Positions 19,916-56,949 of a stretch of 64,000 nucleotides of DNA are shown one piece after another. This DNA is from Schmidtea polychroa (Eukaryota). Under the pieces are notes generated by a model, which did no database searches, had not been told where the DNA came from, and saw only the letters and a program-made list of their open reading frames with translations. Every line of letters starts with the position of its first letter. Positions within the stretch are counted from its first letter, which is position 1. The DNA is taken from assembly GCA_044892525.1 (NCBI GenBank), contig CM097885.1, positions 29,202,001 through 29,266,000 of the forward strand. Direction: 5' to 3'. The position numbers were made by a program, and so were the translations under genes.

Positions 19916-22900
19916 TGTTGGGGTTACACCTCGGCTGACCACTCTACCATGTTGACGGGTCTAAGGGTTGATTGTCCATCTCGAATAAAAGGTGCCACCG
20001 ATTTGTCAACCTGGAGTGAAACCCCACATAACTTTCTTCCAACATAGTGCCCGTGAATCACTTCACGTTGGTACTGCACTATGCAGGCGAGACGCCAGCA
20101 AGCAGGTGAGCTTCTGCCTTAAAACTACTCCTTGCTGAGGCCTCGACTTCCCATTCACGACTGCCGATAGAAGGGCTTACGTCCATTTCCTTACACAACC
20201 GCTTATCGGGATTCGCTGAATGCAAATTGGGAATTTCTCACTAGATCTTGCGGGTTCTCTACTCGACCCACTTAATTAAAGTCTAATTATTCATGAACGA
20301 AGACGTGTAAGACAACAAGATTTATTAATTTCAATGTTATGACACAAGGATTCAGCTGTACACTTTACTAACGTTTGTCGAAAGAAGAGAAAACATCATA
20401 ATCAACATAGATCGGATCCTTGTTCCTCATCCTGACCGCCACTGGGATTTTATTGTTTCTCCCATTCAGTGTCGGCGAATAATTCGTCGAGGTTGAAAAA
20501 CTCGGAAGCGTTCTCTTCCCACCTTACGCCAGCGGCTGATATGATTCGTGCCGAGGGTCCCGTTGTTAGGTCGATGGACACGTGAGAGTTGCCACCGCTG
20601 GTTGAGTCCTCTATTGCTGGGATGTTTGGCTTTGTAGTAGCGCGCTCGCGCTGTCTCTTCTTGCGCTCTGCACGAGAGAGTTGTTTTCGCTTGGGTTTGC
20701 TTGAAGATGCCACTTGCAGAAGGGTGACTGATACGGATGGACTAGCAGTGGGGGGCTTACTGGTACCCGTGATGACAACATCTGGTCGCTTGGGGGACAA
20801 TTCGGTTTCGACGCAGTCTCGGCACGGTCTCTTGAATGGTGGAGATGGATTCGAGGAAAGGTTGTGATGAGGCGGAAAGATGTCATCGGCCTCTCGGATG
20901 GGAATTTGCACTATTTTCCGGGTTGTAGCCGCCTGCACGTAAACCTTATGCAGTGCCTCGGATTGTTCTCTGATTAGACTTCTTTGGGCACGGCTCTCAG
21001 ATATTAGCGCGTCCCGGCAATGCTCACTACGATCGAGCTTCTTTTGGATCTCTTTCATCCGAGCGGGACTAAACCATGTCCCTTCCAGCTCGTCTATCTT
21101 CCTCTTGTAACGTCCAATCTGAGTTTGTAGGTCCTTTATCACCGTATTTTTATCCGCGCACGAGAAGCACGGCCGTAATGCTGATTTAGTGGTTGGTAGC
21201 ATGCTTGCTATAAATAATACTAATGAAATGTAGAACATACGATTTTAGAATAAATTAGATACGACCTACGGCCATTCGTGGATGCTTGACCGACGAAAAA
21301 AAAAAAAGAAAACTTATTCTACAATCCGGTTTTACCACGGATCTTATTTGTTGAAACAATTTATTTGACCAAATGCCATCGGTTTGACGCATGCTATTAA
21401 CTTTGACTCTCTATTGATCTAACTGTATACATGAGGGGCGTAATAATTAATAGGGGGTAAATATAATATTGGTGAAACACTATAATAATGCTTTAGTAGA
21501 GGGACATTATAGTATGCGACTACACCTTGCTATAAATTATCTATTTAAATTTATTGCAAACAAATTACTATCGCTATTCTCAACATATTTTTTGATTCGA
21601 AATTTGTTATTGGAAGTGCACTTTTAATTCGGTAGTGAATGTGATTATCTATATTGTCTACCATTTGTCTGAGAATATGTGATGAGTTTACATCAGCCAT
21701 TACTTGAACCCCCTAATGGGATATCTCATCGGTCATAACACATGTCCAAATTTACGGATACTACTGTCGACTAGTTGATTACATTATCGACCTATTGTGA
21801 ATGTCACGTGTCGCGACTATTATGTATGCTAGTCTGATATTTTGTGCTCTCACCACATGGATTCGCGTATGGCTACTATCTTATCTCACTCACTTGGTGT
21901 ATGCCATTTTCACGGTGATTTTATCGATCCTGCTGTCGTATGATTTTCTCTGCACAGTGATTTATTTGAGTTATGATTTATGCTACCGCCAGTTCTCATC
22001 GCGGAATTTTACCCTTATCAACTTGTGTGAATGATCACCATCGTTTGGAAATTTATTGGATCTTTTCAGTGATCGTCGAGGGAATAATTCTACCAAATAT
22101 TGGAGCATATTACTACTCTCGTCATTCTACTCGGATTTTCCTATTCAGATGTAATGCCGTCTCGATGAAACCTGCCCTTAGCCATTCGAAATTTTCCCTC
22201 AGGTTCAATAATTTGGATATATACAGTGATGACCTGGCTCTTATTGTAGAAATAAATGTTATTAATTAAATTTGGTAATATTTTACCTGTTTATAATTTT
22301 TGAAATAACTAAGTCTATAAAAACTTTCTGATTATAATACTAGAGAGGTTTTCGTAGAATCTCGCATTTTATAGTTTCGAGTTAGTTAAAGTTTTTAGAA
22401 TACTTTCGTAACTTGACATACAATCTGGACAGGTTAGATGACATTGGGTCTATGATAACGGAATTTCATACGAAATTAGTTCTACTGAGTCCGGCAAATA
22501 GACGTTGTCGCAATTAATTTGATAAAACCATGTTTCCAGATGAAGTGTACTATGAGATGTTGTTATTTTTGACGAAGTTCACTAAATCGTGGTCTGGATC
22601 TCTTTTTTCAATAGGGGTAAGATTTACGAAAACGACTTGACGAAAGAAAAAGGAATGCGACGCCCTCAGTCACTGTGCAAATCCTTGAAAATCCCTTCAT
22701 TCGTACGACTATCTTTGTGAAATCATTGTCTACCGGTTATTTTTTATCCATACCCCATTGTGATAATTTAGTCGCATCTTCAGCGATAGGACCCGTGAAG
22801 AAGCCTTCACATTTCGGCCCAATCTAGCTGCGTGATTGAAATACTCCATGTCCACCGGCTGAGCTCCCGAAGGCACCTCATACCATGACATGGAGTATCT

Positions 22901-23784
22901 CAACTCCACGTTACTCGTTAAATGGAAATTCATAAAATCTTTAATTCAAATAAAATACGGACATCTGGATAAAAATATTTTATTGATTCTGAAATACTTA
23001 AATAATACAAATTCCATCAATACGTTAAAGTTATTAAAATGGAGAATCAAATGAAGAGAGCTAACTAAAATATTTAATCGTTAATATTTAACATTACTAT
23101 TAGCTTTGCAAATACTTAAATAAATCTATAAACAAATGAAATACCCCTTACTATTGTTTAGGCTGAGTCAAAATTCAATGTTGTTCGTTCCAAATAGTTT
23201 GAATGGTGGTCCGTTGGATGTCGATTATTGTGATGAATGGTATTTCGGTCTCTGAACTGGTTTTGAATAGTCGTGGAGTTTTCTGAATGACGGTTGCTTG
23301 GCTAGTAGTGTCGATCCTATGAAATGCTCGGGGTTAACAGTAAAAACAGTAAACATTTTTCTTACCTATGAAATGCTCGGGGTTAACAGTAAATTTAATG
23401 TTTTTGGTAGTTGTATATATATCAAATTCTTATTTGTGCGGACCAATCAGAGTTGAGTACCGCTTATTTCTATTAATTTAATATAATTTTCTTGTTTTTA
23501 GGTTGTTTTTTCCTTATTTTCTTTATTTTTAATATGTTTTTCTATTTATTTCCTTAATTTCCTTATTATTTCTTGAATTCCTCTTTATTTATTTGTCAAC
23601 TTGTTCTATTTTAATCTTTTCTTAATTTTATTTTTTGTTTTAATTCTTATGTCTTAATTATTATTTTCCTTATATCTTATTCTATTTTATTTCTGATTTT
23701 ATTTATTTTATTATTATTTTTCTTAATGTTCTACTTCCCTACTTTCTTATTTCTCAACGATTAAATTCTCGACTCAGCCCAACA
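19916..23784 (-). repeat. 3' LTR (3,869 bp)
   Basis: Direct repeat of 46096-49964. Same length, and all ORF-track translations match between the two copies. Confidence 0.97.
20450..21238 (-). CDS. LTR-encoded protein, 3' LTR copy (coiled coil, Pro/Ser linker, basic NLS-like KPKRKQLSRAERKKRQRER, acidic tail); likely start at 21202
   Basis: 262-codon ORF, GC-richer than its surroundings and identical to the 5' LTR copy. A TAG acceptor at 21208-21209 precedes the MLPTTK ATG. Confidence 0.75.
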   Translation of the reverse strand: MFYISLVLFIASMLPTTKSALRPCFSCADKNTVIKDLQTQIGRYKRKIDELEGTWFSPARMKEIQKKLDRSEHCRDALISESRAQRSLIREQSEALHKVYVQAATTRKIVQIPIREADDIFPPHHNLSSNPSPPFKRPCRDCVETELSPKRPDVVITGTSKPPTASPSVSVTLLQVASSSKPKRKQLSRAERKKRQRERATTKPNIPAIEDSTSGGNSHVSIDLTTGPSARIISAAGVRWEENASEFFNLDELFADTEWEKQ

Positions 23785-26838: not shown

Positions 26839-28227
26839 TTATTCCGTTCTACCCTTCTCCTCTTTCCTCACGGTCATCTTGATATATATGGTATCATTTC
26901 TCGCCATATCTTCCACTCTTTGTTGTGAGATGAACGTGGGTGCTCCTGTTGCTGATCCTTCTTCGTTGAGGGGCCTCTGGTAAGCTATTTGATTCCCCGT
27001 TGTTTTGAAGCTTTGCTCATGTATACTTTGGTTGTTCATCAGAGTAATATCGATTTTTGCCTGGAACGGCCATTCTAATATTTCGTCGTATTCTCCTTTA
27101 CATAACAGAAAGAAAATCGAAAAGTGCGTGTTTAATCCGGTTCCGTCCCCGTTGGGATATATCTTCATTTTCATTTTGTACCCATTTTTCCAAGAGTGGA
27201 ATGTAGGACTTGTTATTCTTGTCTCTTCTCCGGTTTTTGCTTTTCGTATTCTTTCTTTTACTCCCGTTATTTTCCATATGTAGGGTGCTGTTGGGGTTAT
27301 CTCATTTAGATTTATTTCCCGTATTTTCTGATGTAGCTCCTTGGCCTGATTATTACTGATTTCTGTTCGGTTTATTTGCATCTTTATGTTTGCTCGGGCT
27401 TCTTCGAACGCTTCCCTTTCTTCTAGTAGTTCTTTGACTAACACTTTCAACGATGTTATCTCTATCTCCATTTGTTTTACTTTCTCTTCGCTTTCTTGTA
27501 GCGCAGTCGACCACATTTCTGCGTGAGTTGAAGCATTTTCTACTAAATGATGTGGTAACTCACCTCGGTGTAGTAGTTTCTGACAACCCCATCTACCTAG
27601 TACACATGTCATTCTTTTCTTTGCGCATTCCCTTAGATGCTGTGCCACCTTCATTATTTCCCCTTGGTTACATCCGTTTGGGCATTCCCCACTGAACTCT
27701 GCACATACTCTCTCCTCTTGGACATTGTGATGTTTGAGGGTGAGATTTATCCACGTATCTATTTCTCCACAGTGTTCACATCTTTCCAATCTCTCTTCAC
27801 ACTGCCTTTGATGCTCTTTTTCTTCGCTTGCTCGAATGGTTTTATGGCACCTTTCACACTGGCCAATTCTGTACATACATTCTCCCATATGTTGTACTAC
27901 CTTCCATATTACTCCTTTCCATTCGCATGGGGCATTTTTGCATCCCAGGTTGGTGTTTAACATGTCTTTCACTGCGGCTTTATCCTCGTTAGTGTCTTCT
28001 AAACTCGATATTAGTGTCTCTTTACACACCGGGCACCTCTGTGGTCTATTCTTTATTGCTTCACTGATACATTCTTTACATACTCTGCATCCACATTGCG
28101 TTTGGTGAGGTTCCTTTAACAACTTTTCACATATTCCGCACATAACATGTTTGTGTATTCTGATCGTTGTAGATTTTCGGACTTGCTCGACAATCTCTCT
28201 GAACTCTTCTCTTTGTCGTTTATCCAT
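26839..28227 (-). CDS. Intronless TRAF (TNF receptor-associated factor) homologue: RING, TRAF zinc fingers, coiled coil, MATH domain
   Basis: RING CGICEKLLKEPHQTQCGCRVCKECI...CPVC, followed by repeated CxxC..H..C fingers. The MATH domain contains YIWKI, GYKMKMKIYPNGDG and GEYDEILEWPF. Confidence 0.95.
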   Translation of the reverse strand: MDKRQREEFREIVEQVRKSTTIRIHKHVMCGICEKLLKEPHQTQCGCRVCKECISEAIKNRPQRCPVCKETLISSLEDTNEDKAAVKDMLNTNLGCKNAPCEWKGVIWKVVQHMGECMYRIGQCERCHKTIRASEEKEHQRQCEERLERCEHCGEIDTWINLTLKHHNVQEERVCAEFSGECPNGCNQGEIMKVAQHLRECAKKRMTCVLGRWGCQKLLHRGELPHHLVENASTHAEMWSTALQESEEKVKQMEIEITSLKVLVKELLEEREAFEEARANIKMQINRTEISNNQAKELHQKIREINLNEITPTAPYIWKITGVKERIRKAKTGEETRITSPTFHSWKNGYKMKMKIYPNGDGTGLNTHFSIFFLLCKGEYDEILEWPFQAKIDITLMNNQSIHEQSFKTTGNQIAYQRPLNEEGSATGAPTFISQQRVEDMARNDTIYIKMTVRKEEKGRTE

Positions 28228-28672: not shown

Positions 28673-28832
28673 TCCTAATTTATATACACTTTTCAACTCT
28701 TATGTAAATTTAATTTTATTTTATGCTTCCCGTTATTGTATAATATTGATACCGCGCTTATATAGAGATATAGTACTGTTATATACATAAGATATACTTA
28801 CTTTTTACAATTATATACAGTCATATTCCTTT

Positions 28833-42686: not shown

Positions 42687-43952
42687 GATTGGTGTTCTAG
42701 GTTCGTCTGTTTCTTTTAAATTGTCTAACGATGTGACTAAACTTTGGGCTGATAATTCCTCGGTTGACGTTGCTAAACTATTAGTGATATCGGACAGACT
42801 TTCTCTACTTCGAGATCGACTAGGGGTATATCCGAGATTTTCTTGGTCAAATATGGGTACTTGATTGGTTCTTCTGGATCCTTGTGATATTCCTCTTTGA
42901 TGTTTAATGGATCGTCCTCTTTTGAGTTGTTGTAATTCGTCTCCTGAAAATAATACGTCTCCTGGCTTACTAGAAGATCTAAGATTGGGTTTATCCGTGA
43001 TTCCTTTCTTACGCTTCTTGGTAATTAGCGGCTATTGAATCGGACGCGTTCGGTTCTGATTGTGTTTCTAATTCTTGGCAGATGGCTGCTAATACTTCTT
43101 CCGTTCTGGAGTCTTCCGGTCGCTGTGTCTCTCGGTGCGGGTTCTGAATGGATTTATCCTTGGTTGATTGTCGATTTTCTTCGAATTCCTTTTGTGCAGG
43201 TTCTGGATTGTCTTGGTTGGCTGGATTGGCTTGATATCTAAAATGAAAAAATGATCTCGTGTTGCATTTGCTTACACGACTTCATCATTCTTTCTACAAC
43301 ATTCAAAAACAGACACCTTTTAGGTTTCTGTTTGTGCTTCCCCTATCTTTTGTGAAATCCTGTCTGCGGTTTATAATATCCCATCAGCCCGTATTTTCCG
43401 TCGATTTTAAATTATCTATATGGGGTAGTAACAATTATCTATAAAGTCGTAATAATTATCTATTCGTTATCAATTATAGTAAAAATAGGTCGTTGTCGGT
43501 CTCTGCTTATTACCCCCCTTTCATTTTCCTAATCCTTTTGCGCTGTTGTCGCTATTTTACTTTTCATATTCACTATTATTACGCTCGGTTCTACTCTGGA
43601 ACCAATAAAATGCATTTTTCCCGGTTTAACCCAAAAAAAAAAAAAAATATTCCGTAGAGTTTCTCTACTTCACTGGGATCCCTTTAATTAGTTAGTTACT
43701 TTCCTCTTTACTCATTATCATCATTTCATCTATTCTTTATTTTCTATTATCTCTTTAATTCGTTTCCTTCTTCCCTTTCCTTTTTCATTATAATCTTATT
43801 TTCTTTTCCACGAGCTCGTTTATTCCCTCTCTAAACTCTAATTTTCAAAATTACATTCAATTTGTTCTAGCTAGCTTTAATATTCCATATCACTAGTAAT
43901 TTAAATATTATCTCATTGTAGCTTAACTGCTATCTCTCGCTTTTCTAGGCCT

Positions 43953-44692
43953 TTACGACTGGCTGGCACTATTCAACAGCTCAATCTTCTTCCTTCTGAT
44001 CGGTTGGACTATTCAACAACTCGATCTTACGACTGGCTGGCACTATTCAACAGCTCAATCTTCCTCCTTCCTGATCGGTTGGACTTTTCACAACTCGACC
44101 TTACGACTGGCTGGCACTATTCAACAGCTCAATCTTCCTCCTTCCTGATCGGTTGGACTTTTCACAACCCGACCTTACGACTGGCTGGCACTATTCAACA
44201 GCTCAATCTTCTTCCTTCTGATCGGTTGGACTATTCAACAACTCGATCTTACGACTGGCTGGCACTATTCAACAGCTCAATCTTCCTCCTTCTTGATCGG
44301 TTGGACTTTTCACAACTCGACCTTACGACTGGCTGGCACTATTCAACAGCTCAATCTTCCTCCTTCTTGATCGGTTGGACTTTTCACAACTCGACCTTAC
44401 GACTGGCTGGCACTATTCAACAGCTCAATCTTCCTCCTTCTTGATCGGTTGGACTTTTCACAACTCGACCTTACGACTGGCTGGCACTATTCAACAGCTC
44501 AATCTTCCTCCTTCTTGATCGGTTGGACTTTTCACAACTCGACCTTACGACTGGCTGGCACTATTCAACAGCTCAATCTTCCTCCTTCCTGATCGGTTGG
44601 ACTTTTCACAACTCGACCTTACGACTGGCTGGCACTATTCAACAGCTCAGTCTTCCTCCTTGACCGGCTGGATTATTCGACAGCTCGGCTTC
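43953..44692. repeat. Tandem array of about 10 x 74-bp units in the element leader
   Basis: TTACGACTGG recurs at 43953, 44027, 44101, 44175, 44249, 44323, 44397, 44471, 44545 and 44619. The last unit is degenerate. Confidence 0.97.
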
Positions 44693-45267
44693 AATATTCC
44701 TCGCTCTGCATGCTTCTATTTCTCTTTTCTTCTTTTACTCTAGTTTACCATTTTCTCTGTCTACTTTTAATTTGTCGACTTAATCTTTACCGCTTGGGAG
44801 TGTTTCCCCTTTCCCCCCTTGCTCAAAACGCACGACGATCGCGATGATCCATTTCTACATTGGCATGGTGATCAGTCATGTCGCAAAAACTTCTCATCAT
44901 ATGCGATGGTACCCCGCCCTACGCTTCTTACTTGGGTTGATCAGTTATCCCCTCCCAACGGGTTCTTGCAATAAGACGTACCGCCCGAAGGTGGCTCGGT
45001 TTGTACCCCTGCAGTCTATATTGGGACTAATTCCACGTTATTCAACCCTCTCTTCATTTGATTCCGAAGAAAAAGAATAAAACAAAACAAACACGCAAAT
45101 ATTCATTCGTCATGCAAATTTTATTAGTCCTAATCATCAAAACTTTTTAAAGACGAATTTATTTATCATAAACATAAAGATTGAATCATTAACAGTACGT
45201 GTTACTTCAACAATTTCATGCATTCTTGTTCAAACATCGTATACTTGCTGTTACATCGCCGGCCGTT

Positions 45268-45753
45268 TCATTCGCCATAATAGACCATATGGGTCTCTTT
45301 TATTTCATATTTGCACATCGTGCATCTTTTTAGGTCTTTTACACACTCTTCACAGTGACTGAGGTGTCCACACGGTAAGAATAATACGCGAATAGGACGG
45401 AGTTTGCAGGCTATACAAGTTCGTAATTGGTTAACTTTTTCCTGTATTTTTTGTTCGATTGCATCTGGTATTGTATTTAGTGAGTCTTTTAGACGCTGAT
45501 AATCTAGATTTAATGTTGGGTGGTTCAATCTCTCTTGATACCACTGATATACGGTTTCGGGGTTTATTTTTCCATCTGGGCGACTTAGGCCTGTGGCTAA
45601 TATCATATGATTAGGTACGACTGGTGTTTGTCCGATTGCTTGTAGTAATATCGCGTTGATTTTTTCTCTTTTATGCGTCAGTGTTGTTAGGGAGTCGTTT
45701 TCTATATCGATAAACTTGAGCAGTTGTTGCATTTGGTTCGCGAATTCTGTCAT
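45268..45753 (-). CDS. 161-aa protein with an IAP-type C-terminal RING (no BIR domain), upstream of gag
   Basis: EQKIQEKVNQLRTCIACKLRPIRVLFLPCGHLSHCEECVKDLKRCTMCKYEI matches the IAP RING pattern. Strong acceptor TTACTTTTCCAACAG|CT-ATG, and AATAAA at 45120-45125 followed by a GT/T-rich tract. Confidence 0.85.
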   Translation of the reverse strand: MTEFANQMQQLLKFIDIENDSLTTLTHKREKINAILLQAIGQTPVVPNHMILATGLSRPDGKINPETVYQWYQERLNHPTLNLDYQRLKDSLNTIPDAIEQKIQEKVNQLRTCIACKLRPIRVLFLPCGHLSHCEECVKDLKRCTMCKYEIKETHMVYYGE

Positions 45754-46070
45754 AGCTGTTGGAAAAGTAATGTTTTAATAATATGTAGTAAATTAATAGT
45801 TAATTCGTTAATTGGTTTCTTTAACCATTGTTAATTATTTAATTTGACTACTTTATCTCCTTTATTTATATATATCCTTAATTTTTCTATTATCTACATT
45901 TTGCTTTTCTCTACTTAGTTCCTAATATAATTTAATAATCAATAGTCAATTTGCATTCGTCAAGCAATGGTCGGTCGAAAACAGAAAATCGATGTGATAA
46001 ATCCCTTTAATTTTTTATGAAAATCCCGGTGAATTTCGCATTCGTTAATAGAAATTTCAATCGACTGTAG

Positions 46071-46088
46071 ATCCCGGCTGAGCCCCCA
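46071..46088 (-). promoter_or_regulatory. Primer-binding site complementary to the 3' end of tRNA-Pro
   Basis: TGGGGGCTCAGCCGGGAT, 16/18 identical to the MLV tRNA-Pro PBS (TGGGGGCTCGTCCGGGAT), located 7 nt inside the 5' LTR boundary. Confidence 0.9.
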
Positions 46089-46629
46089 AAAATCATGTTG
46101 GGGTTACACCTCGGCTGACCACTCTACCATGTTGACGGGTCTAAGGGTTGATTGTCCATCTCGAATAAAAGGTGCCACCGATTTGTCAACCTGGAGTGAA
46201 ACCCCACATAACTTTCTTCCAACATAGTGCCCGTGAATCACTTCACGTTGGTACTGCACTATGCAGGCGAGACGCCAGCAAGCAGGTGAGCTTCTGCCTT
46301 AAAACTACTCCTTGCTGAGGCCTCGACTTCCCATTCACGACTGCCGATAGAAGGGCTTACGTCCATTTCCTTACACAACCGCTTATCGGGATTCGCTGAA
46401 TGCAAATTGGGAATTTCTCACTAGATCTTGCGGGTTCTCTACTCGACCCACTTAATTAAAGTCTAATTATTCATGAACGAAGACGTGTAAGACAACAAGA
46501 TTTATTAATTTCAATGTTATGACACAAGGATTCAGCTGTACACTTTACTAACGTTTGTCGAAAGAAGAGAAAACATCATAATCAACATAGATCGGATCCT
46601 TGTTCCTCATCCTGACCGCCACTGGGATT

Positions 46630-47418
46630 TTATTGTTTCTCCCATTCAGTGTCGGCGAATAATTCGTCGAGGTTGAAAAACTCGGAAGCGTTCTCTTCCC
46701 ACCTTACGCCAGCGGCTGATATGATTCGTGCCGAGGGTCCCGTTGTTAGGTCGATGGACACGTGAGAGTTGCCACCGCTGGTTGAGTCCTCTATTGCTGG
46801 GATGTTTGGCTTTGTAGTAGCGCGCTCGCGCTGTCTCTTCTTGCGCTCTGCACGAGAGAGTTGTTTTCGCTTGGGTTTGCTTGAAGATGCCACTTGCAGA
46901 AGGGTGACTGATACGGATGGACTAGCAGTGGGGGGCTTACTGGTACCCGTGATGACAACATCTGGTCGCTTGGGGGACAATTCGGTTTCGACGCAGTCTC
47001 GGCACGGTCTCTTGAATGGTGGAGATGGATTCGAGGAAAGGTTGTGATGAGGCGGAAAGATGTCATCGGCCTCTCGGATGGGAATTTGCACTATTTTCCG
47101 GGTTGTAGCCGCCTGCACGTAAACCTTATGCAGTGCCTCGGATTGTTCTCTGATTAGACTTCTTTGGGCACGGCTCTCAGATATTAGCGCGTCCCGGCAA
47201 TGCTCACTACGATCGAGCTTCTTTTGGATCTCTTTCATCCGAGCGGGACTAAACCATGTCCCTTCCAGCTCGTCTATCTTCCTCTTGTAACGTCCAATCT
47301 GAGTTTGTAGGTCCTTTATCACCGTATTTTTATCCGCGCACGAGAAGCACGGCCGTAATGCTGATTTAGTGGTTGGTAGCATGCTTGCTATAAATAATAC
47401 TAATGAAATGTAGAACAT
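46630..47418 (-). CDS. LTR-encoded protein, 5' LTR copy (likely start 47382)
   Basis: Same translation as 20450-21238. Acceptor TAG at 47388-47389; the stop codon overlaps an AATAAA. Confidence 0.75.
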   Translation of the reverse strand: MFYISLVLFIASMLPTTKSALRPCFSCADKNTVIKDLQTQIGRYKRKIDELEGTWFSPARMKEIQKKLDRSEHCRDALISESRAQRSLIREQSEALHKVYVQAATTRKIVQIPIREADDIFPPHHNLSSNPSPPFKRPCRDCVETELSPKRPDVVITGTSKPPTASPSVSVTLLQVASSSKPKRKQLSRAERKKRQRERATTKPNIPAIEDSTSGGNSHVSIDLTTGPSARIISAAGVRWEENASEFFNLDELFADTEWEKQ

Positions 47419-49544
47419 ACGATTTTAGAATAAATTAGATACGACCTACGGCCATTCGTGGATGCTTGACCGACGAAAAAAAAAAAAGAAAACTTATTCT
47501 ACAATCCGGTTTTACCACGGATCTTATTTGTTGAAACAATTTATTTGACCAAATGCCATCGGTTTGACGCATGCTATTAACTTTGACTCTCTATTGATCT
47601 AACTGTATACATGAGGGGCGTAATAATTAATAGGGGGTAAATATAATATTGGTGAAACACTATAATAATGCTTTAGTAGAGGGACATTATAGTATGCGAC
47701 TACACCTTGCTATAAATTATCTATTTAAATTTATTGCAAACAAATTACTATCGCTATTCTCAACATATTTTTTGATTCGAAATTTGTTATTGGAAGTGCA
47801 CTTTTAATTCGGTAGTGAATGTGATTATCTATATTGTCTACCATTTGTCTGAGAATATGTGATGAGTTTACATCAGCCATTACTTGAACCCCCTAATGGG
47901 ATATCTCATCGGTCATAACACATGTCCAAATTTACGGATACTACTGTCGACTAGTTGATTACATTATCGACCTATTGTGAATGTCACGTGTCGCGACTAT
48001 TATGTATGCTAGTCTGATATTTTGTGCTCTCACCACATGGATTCGCGTATGGCTACTATCTTATCTCACTCACTTGGTGTATGCCATTTTCACGGTGATT
48101 TTATCGATCCTGCTGTCGTATGATTTTCTCTGCACAGTGATTTATTTGAGTTATGATTTATGCTACCGCCAGTTCTCATCGCGGAATTTTACCCTTATCA
48201 ACTTGTGTGAATGATCACCATCGTTTGGAAATTTATTGGATCTTTTCAGTGATCGTCGAGGGAATAATTCTACCAAATATTGGAGCATATTACTACTCTC
48301 GTCATTCTACTCGGATTTTCCTATTCAGATGTAATGCCGTCTCGATGAAACCTGCCCTTAGCCATTCGAAATTTTCCCTCAGGTTCAATAATTTGGATAT
48401 ATACAGTGATGACCTGGCTCTTATTGTAGAAATAAATGTTATTAATTAAATTTGGTAATATTTTACCTGTTTATAATTTTTGAAATAACTAAGTCTATAA
48501 AAACTTTCTGATTATAATACTAGAGAGGTTTTCGTAGAATCTCGCATTTTATAGTTTCGAGTTAGTTAAAGTTTTTAGAATACTTTCGTAACTTGACATA
48601 CAATCTGGACAGGTTAGATGACATTGGGTCTATGATAACGGAATTTCATACGAAATTAGTTCTACTGAGTCCGGCAAATAGACGTTGTCGCAATTAATTT
48701 GATAAAACCATGTTTCCAGATGAAGTGTACTATGAGATGTTGTTATTTTTGACGAAGTTCACTAAATCGTGGTCTGGATCTCTTTTTTCAATAGGGGTAA
48801 GATTTACGAAAACGACTTGACGAAAGAAAAAGGAATGCGACGCCCTCAGTCACTGTGCAAATCCTTGAAAATCCCTTCATTCGTACGACTATCTTTGTGA
48901 AATCATTGTCTACCGGTTATTTTTTATCCATACCCCATTGTGATAATTTAGTCGCATCTTCAGCGATAGGACCCGTGAAGAAGCCTTCACATTTCGGCCC
49001 AATCTAGCTGCGTGATTGAAATACTCCATGTCCACCGGCTGAGCTCCCGAAGGCACCTCATACCATGACATGGAGTATCTCAACTCCACGTTACTCGTTA
49101 AATGGAAATTCATAAAATCTTTAATTCAAATAAAATACGGACATCTGGATAAAAATATTTTATTGATTCTGAAATACTTAAATAATACAAATTCCATCAA
49201 TACGTTAAAGTTATTAAAATGGAGAATCAAATGAAGAGAGCTAACTAAAATATTTAATCGTTAATATTTAACATTACTATTAGCTTTGCAAATACTTAAA
49301 TAAATCTATAAACAAATGAAATACCCCTTACTATTGTTTAGGCTGAGTCAAAATTCAATGTTGTTCGTTCCAAATAGTTTGAATGGTGGTCCGTTGGATG
49401 TCGATTATTGTGATGAATGGTATTTCGGTCTCTGAACTGGTTTTGAATAGTCGTGGAGTTTTCTGAATGACGGTTGCTTGGCTAGTAGTGTCGATCCTAT
49501 GAAATGCTCGGGGTTAACAGTAAAAACAGTAAACATTTTTCTTA

Positions 49545-49630
49545 CCTATGAAATGCTCGGGGTTAACAGTAAATTTAATGTTTTTGGTAGTTGTATATAT
49601 ATCAAATTCTTATTTGTGCGGACCAATCAG
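49545..49630 (-). promoter_or_regulatory. Putative LTR core promoter (CCAAT and TATA-like) and first splice donor
   Basis: A CCAAT box at about 49623-49627 lies about 25 nt upstream of a TATATATAC tract (minus strand). CATAG|GTAAGA donor at 49545. The same arrangement occurs in the 3' LTR (23365-23450). Confidence 0.5.
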
Positions 49631-49964
49631 AGTTGAGTACCGCTTATTTCTATTAATTTAATATAATTTTCTTGTTTTTAGGTTGTTTTTTCCTTATTTT
49701 CTTTATTTTTAATATGTTTTTCTATTTATTTCCTTAATTTCCTTATTATTTCTTGAATTCCTCTTTATTTATTTGTCAACTTGTTCTATTTTAATCTTTT
49801 CTTAATTTTATTTTTTGTTTTAATTCTTATGTCTTAATTATTATTTTCCTTATATCTTATTCTATTTTATTTCTGATTTTATTTATTTTATTATTATTTT
49901 TCTTAATGTTCTACTTCCCTACTTTCTTATTTCTCAACGATTAAATTCTCGACTCAGCCCAACA

Positions 49965-51304: not shown

Positions 51305-52642
51305 ATGTCATATGTTGTTATTGGAAATAATAAAAAATTAGGATTTTATGATGTAATTATTTCTAACAAATATTTTAAACTTTATTGTTGTTTAGTCACT
51401 ATCGTTAAATATTTCTAATGAATTGGAAAATCGAGTTGATATAGTTCAAAATACTGATGGTAATGTTCTTGTTTCACCAAGTTCTAGTGAAAATTCCATA
51501 TTATTGCGAGTATGAATTTTGAATGATATTTTGTAATTTTAACTTTTAAATTTACTATTATTTATAAATAAAATCAATAATCACTTTTTAATATTCATAA
51601 TGAAAATTCTTTGTCACTTTGGGGTTTTTATTTCGATTTATTTTAATACGAAAATGAAAGGTTAATTCTCTTAGTGTTGCAAAATTTATGCAACGTTATA
51701 ATAATTGGTAAAATAAGGGCTGTAAACCGAGGGTTTTGTGGGATATATATATATATATCCCAAGTTACTTGTATTACAAATCTCCATTGCATTTTATAAT
51801 CCATTAAAAAATCAGGTTTACCGGTACGCCATCAAATTTTTTACAACGTACCGGTACGGAACTATGAAAATGTTGTGAACCCCTTTATTAAAGGCTTTTA
51901 GTCTCATCAAGATATACAATTCAAAGGAAATGTAATTTTTCAGAATTTTCTCGATATTTAATTTGAATTAGCTCCGATCTAAATAATATTTTGAAAATTA
52001 TTAATTAAAATTAGCTTAAGAGATTATTAGAATAAATTAGAATGAATTATAGAGACCCAGTTTTTGTCCATTTGCTACATTAACGACAATGAGTAACTCT
52101 AATCTTCAACCTTTAAAATCACAATGGATAGCAGTTGCATCGGTTGCAATCCTTCAGAGCAATGATGGTTTGATTTTGTTGACTAGACGAGCATCTCATC
52201 TCAGAACATTTCCAAATGTTTGGGTAGCAGCTGGTGGACATGTTGATACAAACGAAGATCTAGAAGTTACCTTTTATCCCACTTTTTGTGTATATCATAA
52301 TTTTTAAAGGATACTGCATTGCGTGAACTTATGGAAGAAACAGGTCTTCAATTGTCTCGGAATGATTTGGACATTACCCTTCTTTGCGCTTGGGAAAGCA
52401 CTTATCCAACTATTTTAGATTTGGGAATGCCTAAATCTCATCATTTAGTTCTTTATTTTAAAATAGTTATAAAAGGCAAGAATTATAACTTGGAGAAATT
52501 GATGGTTAATGTCGACGAAGTCCAGGAATACTGCTGGTTAGATAAAAATAAAGTCACCGCCATAGTTCAATCGTTTCCCGATCCACTGGACATGAGTTTT
52601 TCTAAGGATATCAATGTAAAAATAGACGAGAATTTCGAGTAA
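51305..52642 (+). CDS. NUDT17: Nudix hydrolase, NUDT17-like (exons 51305-51352, 51396-51509, 52053-52265, 52310-about 52640; 3' end uncertain)
   Basis: GT-AG introns join RPSFCPF, VAILQS..LLTRR, GGHVD..E.LE|DTALRELMEETG (Nudix box) and LCAWESTYP..L..G.PKSHHLVLYF, which are hallmarks of NUDT17. Confidence 0.85.
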
Positions 52643-52672
52643 TATTTTATTTTGATTTTTATCAATAGTTTT

Positions 52673-53762
52673 GGTACTTCCGTGTTATCTTACCCCCAAA
52701 AATTAAATTAAAAAAGAACACAATTATTATATTTATTTTCTAAATCACAGTTACAAACTCAGCAAATGTTTGTAAAGAGTTTGTAAATGGTCATCCAGGT
52801 GGCCAGAAAACCACAACGTCGTTGAGAATAGTGTCGGACACATCGGCACTGTTGCTTAGAACACGTTTGCGCCACATAAACTCGCACATGTTCGAGTCAA
52901 TCATCTGTCTATGAGTTACATTTTGTCGTTTGTTCCTTTCCTTTGCCGCCCTCCACGTTCTCTCAATTGTCTGTGTGTGGGCACCGGTAACAGGGTTTAA
53001 AAAATTTTGTGAATGGTTAACTGTGCTGTGTGTGTAACCTCGTCCTGGTATCTCAGCAATTCCAGCGTACGCCCTCCACTCGTCTGATACGATGTTACTC
53101 CCTGGTGCAATAGACTAAGTTATTATTGGCATCAAAGTAGCTGAAAGTTCGATCTGGGACAGTGTACAAAAAACAATCACCAGTTTCTTTACAGATACCA
53201 CCAAAAACCCATTGTTGGGGAAACACACGACCGACTTGGTTTTTGCGCCGTGAAAATAAACTTTCATCTATTTCAACTGTTGTGTTAGGACCTCCAATTA
53301 TCATTGGATTAACCAGTAATGTATTTGCACAGACCTCACGGAGATACATGTTCCAGTCAACGACACTGCTTTCGCCAATATCTAGTTCATTTTCGCAGAA
53401 ATTAATACTTGTCAACTGCTTTGACCAACAATAAATGAACAGTACAATTTGTCTGAAAGGCAATTTGGAGCCTTGTAGTCATGTTCCTCGTCGAACTTGT
53501 ACATCTTCCCGGTATTCACGTCGTATTCAGCGGTCGTGATGGCCATTAAGTGACAAAGTCATGGCGTGATTATTGCTACAAATACGCGGGTTGTGCAAAA
53601 TTCCATGTTGCTGCAAAAACTGCACAGCACTGGCTTTGTCGTTTACTAACGCTGATAGCCTTAATAAATTCATGTTCAATAATGTATTCTCTCATTTTTA
53701 TATTGTTATTTTAATTGTATTTTATAATTTAATTTTTGGGGGTAAGATAACACGGAAGTACC
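52673..53762 (-). mobile_element. Merlin (IS1595/ISXO2-like) DNA transposon, 1,090 bp, with pseudogenised transposase (about 52791-53673)
   Basis: Perfect 38-bp TIR starting GGTACTTCCGTG and 8-bp TSD ATAGTTTT. Motifs VEIDESLF, WVFGG, VSDEWRAY, TVNHS.NF and HTQTIE are present, with a frameshift and an in-frame stop near 53110-53150. Confidence 0.92.
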
Positions 53763-54063
53763 ATAGTTTTAAGCAAAAAAATAACGTTAAATTCCTGGAA
53801 AATACGAATCTTATAAAAATATATATTTTAAATTTAACCCTTAATTACATTGTGTAGCAAATTTGCAACATACCAGCATTTCGCCTAAAATCAATAAGAT
53901 CTAACCATTTCATAGTGTTGCTTGTCAGCTACAAAGCTGTTTAACGGATTTTAAATTTTACATTAGATTTTTTAAATTATTTTTATAATTATCTATTTAG
54001 TCAAAGGAACGTTATTTTATTTTATTCAAAATAAATAAAAAAAATGCTATTAAGGGTTAAAAT

Positions 54064-56949
54064 CAGTGTTTCGAACCCCGAAAATTATGGGTTCGGGTTC
54101 GGGTTCGGGTTCAATGGAATAAAATTTAATGGGTTCGGGTTCGGTTCGGGTTTGGGTTCAGGTTCAAATTAAAAAAAGCGAAATTTTTAATTAATATTTT
54201 ATTTTGAATATATAGAAATATATATCAGTATTAAAGTATTATATAATTTTATTTAATTTATTTTTGGAAAAAATTTTCATTAAGTCTAACAAATAAAATG
54301 TTTCTTAAAGAATCAACACTTAAATGTATTCTTTGTGGAGCTAAAATTAGTTTCAGCGCAGAAAATGCCCTCTCGACGCTGACTTGTGTAGCAGGAACAG
54401 CAAATACAATCTGAGCAGCTTCATAAAGTAATGGTGTTTCCATTTTTTTTTGCTCCCAGAATTCTAAAATATTTTTGTCTTTAGGAAGCCTGGGATAGGT
54501 TTCATAAATATCGATTTCGGTTTTGAAAGCCATACAAGCATTGGATTTGTTAAAATTTTTCGGCATTGATGCTGCAGCTGATATAGAATTTTTTTCTTTG
54601 TTCTTTAGCATTTCTTCCAGCATGTCTGCTTCTTCATCTGAGGAACTAGAGATTAAATTGGAAGTGATAGTAGTTTCGCTAGTTCGTGCTTTATTTTCAG
54701 TTTCCAGATGTAAATCTTTTAATTTTCTTATTGTGGATAAAATGTGATTTTGAGCTTTGGTTGTATTATCATCATTAAGCATCAATTTGAATCTAGGATC
54801 TAAATATATGGCGGCGTTTAAAAGTTCATTATCTATAAATGATTTTTCTCGTTTAATAATATTTGAATATAAATCTGCACATAATTTTTTATTCCTGATT
54901 TTTTGTAAATCTAATTTAAACTTCAACCACAGCCCATAAAAATCTCCTAAATTCATCTGCTCATTTTGTAACTGCAAAGTTAACTTTTTAACTGGCTCTA
55001 AAATTTCAACAAAATCTGAAATAAATTGCCACATATTTTCATTCATGTTTAGATCAGGATCTACTACATCTAAACAAAAAGTTTTATAATCCAACAAGCG
55101 TTTGAGCATATCGAAGGTGGAATTCCACCGAGTTGGACAATCCAACATAGCTTTCTTTAAGCCCAACTTTTTAGCTAATGAAGCTCTATTAGGTGTCCTC
55201 AACTTTTTGGAAATATCTCTGCATGTGGCAATCTTTTTTTTTACTGAAGAGTTGCTAGTAGTGTCATAAACTGCTAATTGAGCAATATGGGCTACGCACC
55301 TAAAATGAATAATATTACCATATAAATTAGACAACATTTCCAGAGCTTCTTCTTCATTCTCAACTATTAATCCCTCATCTTCATCTTCTACTTCTTCAAG
55401 GTCAGAAACTTCTTGAAACTCATCTCTTAACAGCTCAGCCGCTTTAAGCATGTTTCTACCATTATCTGAAGTAACTGAATAAACTTGGCTTAATTGTATA
55501 TCGTAAGATTGGATTACTTCAATTATCACATTTTTTATGTAATTAGCTGTTTGACGATCGTCAACCTCATGCATGGCTAAAGTTCTCAAATTAATTTTTC
55601 CATTGTTAATGATCTGAATATTTATGCCAATTACGCTTCTACCAAGCCGGGATGCTGAATCAATTTTTACAGATATTAATTTTTTTTTCAACTCGCCTTT
55701 AATCAAATTTTTCATTTCAATAGCCTTATTATTTACTAAATCCTTAATATTTTCAGAATTTACAGCCAGTTTTAATGATTTCATTATCGGTTTTATTATA
55801 TCACGCATGCCAGCATCTTTGAAAATAGTAAACGGGCGCCCATTAACGGTAACTAATTTTATGCAGGCATCAGTGAAATATTTTGATGACATATTAATTT
55901 TAATCAAATTGAAATAATTTTCAATGGAAACTGAATTTGTATCCTGAAGTTTAAACTTTTTGGTGGTTTGTGATGTAGACTCTTATATTTCGATATTCAT
56001 CAGGATGTTTCCGTTTGATATGGCGACCCAGATTTGCAGTATGTTTACCTTTCATAGAAAAAGAGCATTTTGTACATATTGACTGGTCTTTGATAGAATC
56101 ATATTCGAAAAATTTTTTTACATGGTTTGCTGACATCTGAAGGACAAAAATTTTTTTTTAATATAATTTATAATTAAAAATAAAAACCGTAAAATGGAAA
56201 ATTTTTTAATTAATTACTACAAAAATTTAAGCACCTAAATTTATGTTAAAAAAGTTCCCACAAACATATATTCGAAGAAATATATTCGCAAGTTAAAAAA
56301 AAATTAATTAAAAAAGCGCGCTGGAATTAAACAAATGCATACATAAGCTGTAGTTAGTTATAGTTACCTTAATGTTTTATCCAAGTTTTTTCTGTAATAC
56401 AGTATTTTTAATTTTTTAATATTTATTTTCAATTAATTAATTTATTTAGCATCACACTTTTTTAAATATTACACACTTTTTAAATAATAGTATAATAATC
56501 AGGTTACAAATTTCTTTGACTTTTGAAATTGGAATAATTTTTCTTTCTGATTTTTAAATTTAATTTGAAAATGGAGAAAATAATACAATCACTATAACAA
56601 CAATCTAGATTTGATGAACACTAGATGAAAATGATAAAAATAATATACATAAATCGCGACGATGTAATCAATACAAAACCAAATGTAAATTTGTTCATGT
56701 TCATTCACGCACGATTGACGGAATATTCATGTTCTGAGAAACTAACAAAAAATAAGAAAAATGTTTCTTAGAAAAACATACATTTTTTCATTTTTTTTGT
56801 TATTCAGGAATAAAAACTTTCTCAAAAAAAATTAAAAAAATGTTTTTTTTATTGAACCTGAACCCGGTTTTTGAATGGGTTCGGGTTCGGTTCGGGTTCA
56901 CAAATTTGTTTGAACCGGAGCGGGTTTTGAGTTCGGGTTCGAAACACTG
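54064..56949 (-). mobile_element. hAT DNA transposon (2,886 bp)
   Basis: 15-bp TIR CAGTGTTTCGAACCC, 8-bp TSD GTTAAAAT and subterminal GGGTTC repeats. Confidence 0.95.
54258..56136 (-). CDS. hAT transposase (BED zinc finger, DDE core, hATC), with one frameshift near 55985
   Basis: BED finger CTKC...NLGRHIKRKH; core motifs KIDSASR, VTSDNGRNM, CVAHIAQL, TRWNST and PATQVSVERAFS. The BED frame stops at 55951 while the core frame opens just after 55985. Confidence 0.85.

Follow-up and report, generated by a model that had tools for sequence, protein, structure and literature searches.

The 161-aa RING ORF (P0001) that lies ahead of gag in a giant LTR retroelement of Schmidtea polychroa is best explained as a real, conserved accessory gene of Burro-type retroelements, one that, judged by comparison with its homologues, has probably lacked a BIR domain since before the families diverged. 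By analogy to MDMX, its product may be a partner (pseudo-ligase) RING, with an unrelated helical N-terminus as the adaptor; to this reading we give slightly less than an even chance.

The element spans 30,049 bp on the minus strand of a 64-kb stretch of S. polychroa DNA (the window, to which all coordinates refer; Table 1). It is flanked on both sides by a CCGG target-site duplication, which, together with the identity of the two LTRs, indicates that the insertion is recent. The PBS-like 18-mer presumably resembles tRNA-Pro. In addition to the domains given in Table 1, the 4,732-aa polyprotein frame encodes protease, RT, RNase H, integrase, and ankyrins, and its Bcl-2-like match is below the Pfam cut-off (E 0.083). 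The MATH domain of the element-encoded TRAF matches TRAF1/2/3 (E about 5e-28). The first-pass annotation had placed the RING ORF between the PBS and gag, and this location was confirmed: from ATG to stop, the minus-strand ORF sits between the PBS-like 18-mer and gag.

TABLE 1 Features of the retroelement and of its RING ORF, in window positions
Feature	Position	Strand	Remarks
5' LTR	46096..49964	-	3,869 bp, 100% identical to 3' LTR; contains 250-aa ORF
3' LTR	19916..23784	-	3,869 bp
PBS-like 18-mer	46071..46088	-	7 nt inside 5' LTR boundary; complement terminates in CCA
TATA-like run, overlaps AATAAA	45861..45874	-	About 120 nt upstream of ATG; candidate
Acceptor-like pyrimidine tract + CAG	45756..45770	-	2 nt before ATG; candidate
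BIR-less helical-domain + RING ORF (P0001), 161 aa	45268..45753	-	ATG 45753, stop 45270-45268; Pfam + homologues
N-terminal 112 aa	45418..45753	-	Predicted helical, no known family; long helix 79-110 runs into RING
C3HC4 RING, C113-C147	45313..45417	-	Altered E2 face: A115, K117, T145, M146
C-terminal tail	45271..45312	-	K148 at linchpin position; Y158 equivalent to cIAP1 F616
Two AATAAA	45163-45158 and 45125-45120	-	104 and 142 nt after stop
74-bp tandem array, 9.6 copies	43953..44661		Between RING gene and gag
Polyprotein open frame, 4,732 aa	28833..43031	-	Pfam: gag, CCHC knuckles, Bcl-2-like, fusion glycoprotein
TRAF ORF, full-length	26839..28227	-	RING, zinc fingers, coil, MATH; separate ORF downstream of polyprotein

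Several other features of the element were recorded. The element has four more accessory ORFs at 28699-24014 (minus strand), which measure 128, 368, 258, and 222 aa from stop to stop; they gave no Pfam match at the cut-off and are mostly coiled-coil-like, the last one having two hydrophobic stretches. The 250-aa ORF of each LTR (47382-46630 and 21202-20450, minus strand) has a strong acceptor-like site before it at 47400 and encodes an arginine-rich basic stretch, two CxxC pairs, and an acidic C-terminus. No convincing family was found for it, and it may be likened to a transactivator. Elsewhere in the LTR, a consensus donor (49545-49497, minus strand) lies between two short direct-repeat copies, and the duplication around it could define a 49-nt intron (49545-49497), with a TATA-like run just upstream. 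In the leader, a GTAAG donor-like site is present on the sense strand in 9 copies of the 74-bp array. A 90-codon open frame (43281-42970, minus strand), which follows the element's strongest acceptor (43238), terminates at GTAAG, and a candidate 43-nt intron (43012-42970, minus strand) has the phase to join the polyprotein frame; the polyprotein may start upstream of its first ATG (42686). Rfam gave no matches in positions 19000-51000 of the window. Outside the element, a piece of a host NUDIX gene (52053-52642, plus strand) is interrupted by a candidate intron of 44 nt whose donor is weak, making short introns plausible in the S. polychroa genome. Also present are an IS1595/Merlin-like element, whose inverted ends measure 44 nt and whose transposase is split, and a hAT transposase ORF on the minus strand (52672-53763 and 54258-55982).

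Pfam analysis of P0001 revealed a RING (PF13920; E 3.7e-11; 43.1 bits versus a cut-off of 27) with all eight zinc ligands in C3HC4 spacing (C113, C116, C128, H130, C134, C137, C144, and C147), and no BIR. Furthermore, when the six-frame fragments of the window (3,235 in all) were scanned with a BIR profile made from 23 domains, none was matched (best E 0.81). Since the same profile detected held-out half-BIRs at E 4.5e-10 and 1.9e-7, we conclude that there is no BIR exon within the 64-kb window. The original description of the gene as BIR-less is thus upheld by both Pfam and the custom profile, and the spliced upstream BIR exons that had been named as a possible objection to it were looked for in the window and not found. 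From the LTR to the acceptor there are 340 nt, in which no open stretch exceeds 44 codons. The defining feature of an IAP is at least one BIR domain; P0001 has none and is by this definition, as given in the accessible text of PMC7290580, not an IAP. The same text describes caspase and IBM binding as dependent on BIRs (PMC7290580); neither such binding nor direct caspase inhibition would be expected of P0001.

Homologues were searched among 1.84 billion representatives, which gave 991 matches at E ≤0.001, and the best 150 of the 991 were used. The best match of all was P0002, a protein of 160 aa with 28% identity over P0001 residues 9-158 (E 5.8e-18). Together with P0152, P0022 (matched to P0001 residues 9-141), and P0160, a further family member that is 84% identical to P0002, it belongs to four homologues at about 26% identity to P0001. 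The alignment of P0001, P0002, P0152, and P0022 spans 140 columns and contains a single gap, of one residue; the four have the first Met in common. Between P0001 and P0002, 23/112 residues of the N-terminus and 19/48 of the RING plus tail are identical. No BIR was detected in a scan of P0002, P0022, and P0152, and P0160 is collinear with them. Since the homologues are collinear, begin at the same Met, and are without a BIR, the BIR-less form is old and conserved and not a recent truncation. Longer or shorter forms of the family are covered only by this search and not by the word-index searches, which gave 0/12 candidates with P0001, 2/7 with P0002, and 8/2,394 with A2, the last missing P0002. 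Four scans of viral contigs for relatives confirmed nothing.

In the database protein P0022, the homologue precedes a Burro-type gag that is 45% identical to gag of the P0001 element, showing that the gene precedes gag in a second, divergent family. P0022 is the only homologue tied to gag; P0002, P0152, and P0160 are on contigs of 655-1,137 nt. The conservation across divergent families means that this cargo is maintained and not freshly captured. P0022 joins the homologue, cut inside the RING, to gag, and P0001 has a donor-like site just after the C137 codon (45342), which could be used with the strongest acceptor of the element at 43238. The ORF might therefore also serve as a 5' exon of gag, with a RING-Gag fusion as the spliced product. 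However, P0022 is without the last two zinc ligands and resembles a gene-prediction join, P0001, P0002, P0152, and P0160 each have a complete RING, tail, and stop, and the 45342-43238 join, read by eye, hits a stop after 27 codons. We consider such a fusion very improbable.

By sequence, the RING of P0001 is closest to cIAP1/2. In a PDB sequence search, IAP RINGs made up 10 of the 13 matches and took the top ten places (best E 2.4e-10), with weaker matches to the RINGs of IDOL (E 2.9e-5) and CGRRF1 (E 4e-6), and the family profile also favored cIAP. In the structure comparison, Foldseek ranked IDOL first for the P0001 model, VIA-align gave a tie between IDOL (Z 8.9; rmsd 1.2; 63 aligned) and BIRC7 (Z 8.7; rmsd 0.9; 57 aligned), and the MDM2/MDMX RINGs ranked below IDOL and IAP. 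A two-profile IAP-versus-other score was positive for 55/56 IAP RINGs and 7/34 non-IAP RINGs in a leave-one-out analysis, the 34 non-IAP RINGs being mostly Mind bomb, with IDOL, CGRRF1, and MDM2 not in the set. P0001 scored +4.3 bits, which lies in the overlap zone (9/56 IAP RINGs lower, 2/34 non-IAP RINGs higher), whereas P0002 (+8.3) and P0152 (+9.2) outscored all 34 non-IAP RINGs. A quick tree of 103 rows and 65 columns, which took only matches with a domain label and included a few non-RING rows, left the family in an open fork.

The Foldseek rank, the tie in VIA-align, and the position of P0001 in the overlap zone would suit a host IAP that was captured and is now a fragment in neutral decay, or a derivative of a non-IAP ligase (IDOL, CGRRF1) unrelated to apoptosis. 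We assign hardly any probability to this explanation. Neutral decay is excluded by the conservation of length, start, and zinc ligands at 26% identity, which leaves a non-IAP origin as the possible part of this explanation; against the latter stand the top ten PDB places of IAP RINGs and the scores of P0002 and P0152. The IAP-like coil-RING C-terminus postulated previously is indeed present in P0001 in the form of a C-terminal RING with a pre-RING helix and an aromatic tail. Descent of the RING from IAPs is likely, with sequence favoring cIAP and structure tying with IDOL.

The N-terminal 112 aa were less informative. The P0001 model had a mean pLDDT of 63.4 overall, with values mostly <70 across this region, and the structure matches of this low-confidence model were generic helical bundles (Z ≤8.5). 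The N-terminus matched no PDB sequence at E 10 and had no usable match in the Atlas, and PHROGs and NCBIfam yielded nothing below E 0.001 for P0001. A UBA-like N-terminus, as suggested initially, was not recovered: a profile of 12 IAP UBA-like segments, which a very diverged UBA may escape, gave no match to P0001 and an hhalign E of 0.3 to the family N-terminus. The sole hint that the N-terminus could contain a degenerate IAP linker came from P0084, a BIR-RING protein that matched it at E 1.2e-5 among 158 proteins. We treat this match as selection bias, since it was not reproduced with the family profile (the 115 aa before the P0084 RING did not reach the first ten places among 131 controls) and BIR ligands are not conserved in the family.

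The residues of the RING were compared with those of cIAP1 and cIAP2, using the cIAP1 numbering of PMC6349121. According to the accessible text of that source, cIAP1 dimerizes via the pre-RING helix, the RING, and the tail; the E2 contacts are V573 and M575, the linchpin is R606, and F616 of one subunit packs on ubiquitin in trans, a position that is Phe or Tyr also in BIRC7, RNF4, and MDM2-MDMX (PMC6349121). For cIAP2, V568 is described as needed for dimers and L585/I590 for E2 binding (PMC3172091). P0001 has kept the dimer-type residues L124 (cIAP2 V568) and Y158 (cIAP1 F616) and the E2-contact residues L141 (L585) and M146 (I604). Its E2 face is changed at A115 (V573), K117 (M575), T145 (Pro, P603), and K148 (the R606 linchpin). 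Thus, P0001 shares the eight zinc ligands, the dimer residue, and the tail Phe/Tyr with active dimeric RING E3s, and with A115 and K148 it has neither the hydrophobic V573 contact nor the linchpin Arg of an active cIAP-type RING. P0002, P0152, and P0160 have Ile at the V573 position, Asp at the linchpin, and Met at the cIAP2 V568 position, and the tail Tyr is kept in these three and in P0001. Among 20 C-terminal RINGs of BIR proteins, the linchpin was Lys in 4 and Asp in 1, Lys was found at the M575 position in 6, and the Pro was lost in 5, showing that single E2-face changes are common in invertebrate IAPs. P0001 and the P0002 group do not carry the same damaging change, and no inactivating residue is common to both.

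The combination of a kept dimer face and an eroded E2 face points to a partner RING, which would complete the active site of another RING. MDMX is a poor ligase that is not known to be active on its own. By analogy, P0001 would use the pre-RING helix and tail to dimerize with a catalytically competent IAP/IDOL-class RING, most probably that of a host IAP. P0001, itself a poor E2 binder, would give this partner its tail aromatic in trans, in the way in which MDMX assists MDM2. The helical N-terminus would take over from the BIRs as the targeting module, and the outcome could be that host ubiquitination is redirected or tuned in cells expressing the element. The idea of RING heterodimerization with host IAPs had been put forward in the first-pass annotation, and the kept dimer residues are compatible with it. 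A two-copy complex prediction of P0001, run without an alignment, was uninformative, with a score of 0.01.

It is also possible, but less probable, that P0001 is an autonomous homodimeric E3 whose N-terminus binds the substrate (e.g., a host restriction or silencing factor) and whose RING uses a tolerant E2. The eight zinc ligands, L141, the hydrophobic M146, a basic linchpin residue, and the tail Tyr are all in place for this, similar-sized BIR-less RING proteins occur in large DNA viruses and in the Polinton-like contig L001, and RNF8, a coil-plus-RING ligase, weakly matches profile positions 48-156 (E 0.0019). However, Ala at the V573 position, the main E2 contact, was found in 0/20 C-terminal RINGs of BIR proteins (and in 4/198 non-family RINGs), and three homologues have the linchpin Asp.

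The element encodes a full TRAF, and long helices are predicted in both this protein and P0001. A pairing of the two, like that of cIAP and TRAF2, had been proposed initially. However, in the accessible text of PMC3172091 and PMC7290580 the cIAP-TRAF2 contact goes via BIR1, which binds the TRAF2 trimer. No BIR was found here, this module is absent, and the proposal cannot be maintained in its original form. P0001 as a partner of the element's own TRAF would require a new type of contact, and we regard this as improbable.

Concerning expression, the acceptor and poly(A) motifs noted originally are present, and their occurrence is modestly above chance. On the sense strand, 41/859 YAG sites are as pyrimidine-rich (at least 9 pyrimidines) as that at 45756, and such an acceptor-like site is found ≤10 nt upstream of 99/5,388 non-coding positions. 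The chance of AATAAA in the 200 nt concerned is 0.28 for at least one and 0.04 for two; the sense strand of the element contains 70 AATAAA, two of them inside the P0001 ORF and 17 inside the polyprotein ORF. An AATAAA is located ≤130 nt after the stop in 7/8 element ORFs, and the eighth has ATTAAA. In a pattern noticed after the fact, 4/8 element ORFs have a YAG at 1-2 nt ahead of their first ATG, versus about 8% of other ATGs (P about 0.002).

The YAG sites in question, including one before the second ATG of a fifth ORF, are at 28675, 28229, 26648, 25424, and 45756 (minus strand). Each of them is 30-115 nt after A(A/T)TAAA, which fits operon-like processing. Leader trans-splicing has been reported in Schmidtea, and flatworm spliced leaders end in AUG (PMC12582326, accessible text); at all these YAG sites the leader AUG would be out of frame. 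In Macrostomum, trans-splicing is described as resolving operons with spacers of about 100 nt (PMC8629364).

A separate mRNA for the P0001 ORF is likely on these signals, and it could arise from an internal promoter, LTR-initiated splicing, or leader trans-splicing. The independent transcription unit envisaged earlier is one option, and the acceptor at 45756 would be just as compatible with leader trans-splicing or with splicing from the LTR promoter. In our model, P0001 would be made from its own short mRNA, spliced at 45756 and with a 3' end after 45163/45125. Since the genomic RNA must read through these poly(A) and splice sites, they would be leaky or regulated. A more far-reaching proposal has two halves: an MDMX-like pseudo-ligase that hijacks and retargets host IAP RINGs via a new helical adaptor, and accessory genes that are cut operon-style from a polycistronic RNA by polyadenylation and SL trans-splicing. 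The second half rests on the YAG (4/8 ORFs) and AATAAA (7/8 stops) patterns, and we consider the combination doubtful. Its hijack-and-retarget logic is that of retroviral accessory proteins, here in an invertebrate LTR element.

Burro elements are already known from the literature to carry apoptosis and ubiquitin cargo, and what appears to be new is this BIR-less RING variant with its proposed partner-RING mechanism. Burro interference with ubiquitin and apoptosis has been proposed, and an accessory ORF upstream of the polyprotein was reported for one Burro-like element in one species (PMC6431247, accessible text). A BIR-less RING gene in front of gag was not found described for Burro-type elements in the literature searched, including the accessible text of PMC6431247; the figures or supplements of Grohme 2018 and Jurka 2007 may show the ORF. 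The published idea is narrowed here to a small, tractable protein for which pairing with host IAP RINGs, and a dependence on them for its activity, are predicted. In planarians that have lost SMEDWI-2, live cells of differentiated tissues express BURRO1 (PMC8532177, accessible text), which makes a survival or anti-restriction function open to an RNAi test.

Among the matches listed, BIR-less RING genes are common in viruses, and adintoviruses carry IAP and Bcl2 homologues (PMC8502044). Like the P0001 element, large DNA viruses, adintoviruses, and Polintons have small accessory genes of the helical-plus-RING type in which the E2 face is altered (P0056/P0153, P0020/P0154). Kinship of the N-terminus with the Polinton-like proteins was considered and rejected, as its score of 11.7 was within that of shuffles (median 10.4; 95th percentile 14.0). 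The N-termini being no closer than shuffles, the likeness represents parallel capture, and kinship beyond the RING is rejected. On L001 (82-2104), an A32-like ATPase (E 4.3e-7) directly follows a BIR-less RING gene; a pX-like protein (E 0.03) and, by eye, the start of an integrase mark this contig as Polinton/adintovirus-like.

Compared to the cIAP1, cIAP2, XIAP, and BIRC7 RINGs, P0001 shares the pre-RING helix, the C3HC4 spacing, the dimer residue, and the tail aromatic, but it has no BIR or CARD and no recognizable UBA, its helical N-terminus is unrelated, and its tail is one residue longer. IDOL/MYLIP and CGRRF1 are an equal structural match, and the tails of the homologues end in YLP; unlike these proteins, P0001 is without a FERM or membrane domain. 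MDMX in MDM2-MDMX is similar only in the way it works, with a tail aromatic able to act in trans, and has no sequence kinship to P0001 beyond the RING class.

The P0001 element has the layout of Burro/GYPSM1, giant gypsy-like planarian elements for which BIR, TRAF, Bcl-2-like, and ankyrin cargo is described (PMC6431247, accessible text). In common with them, the P0001 element has a length of about 30 kb, long LTRs, a single gag-env-pol polyprotein, Bcl-2-like and ankyrin cargo, a TRAF, tandem repeats, and accessory ORFs (PMC6431247). Burro1 has BIR and MATH/TRAF motifs and a 4,873-aa ORF1 (PMC6431247), whereas the P0001 element lacks in every frame the BIR motif reported for Burro1-4, carries its TRAF as a separate downstream ORF, and has the BIR-less RING before gag. 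Since the D. tigrina element also differs in its cargo (PMC6431247), the missing BIR separates the P0001 element from Burro1, but not from the Burro type.
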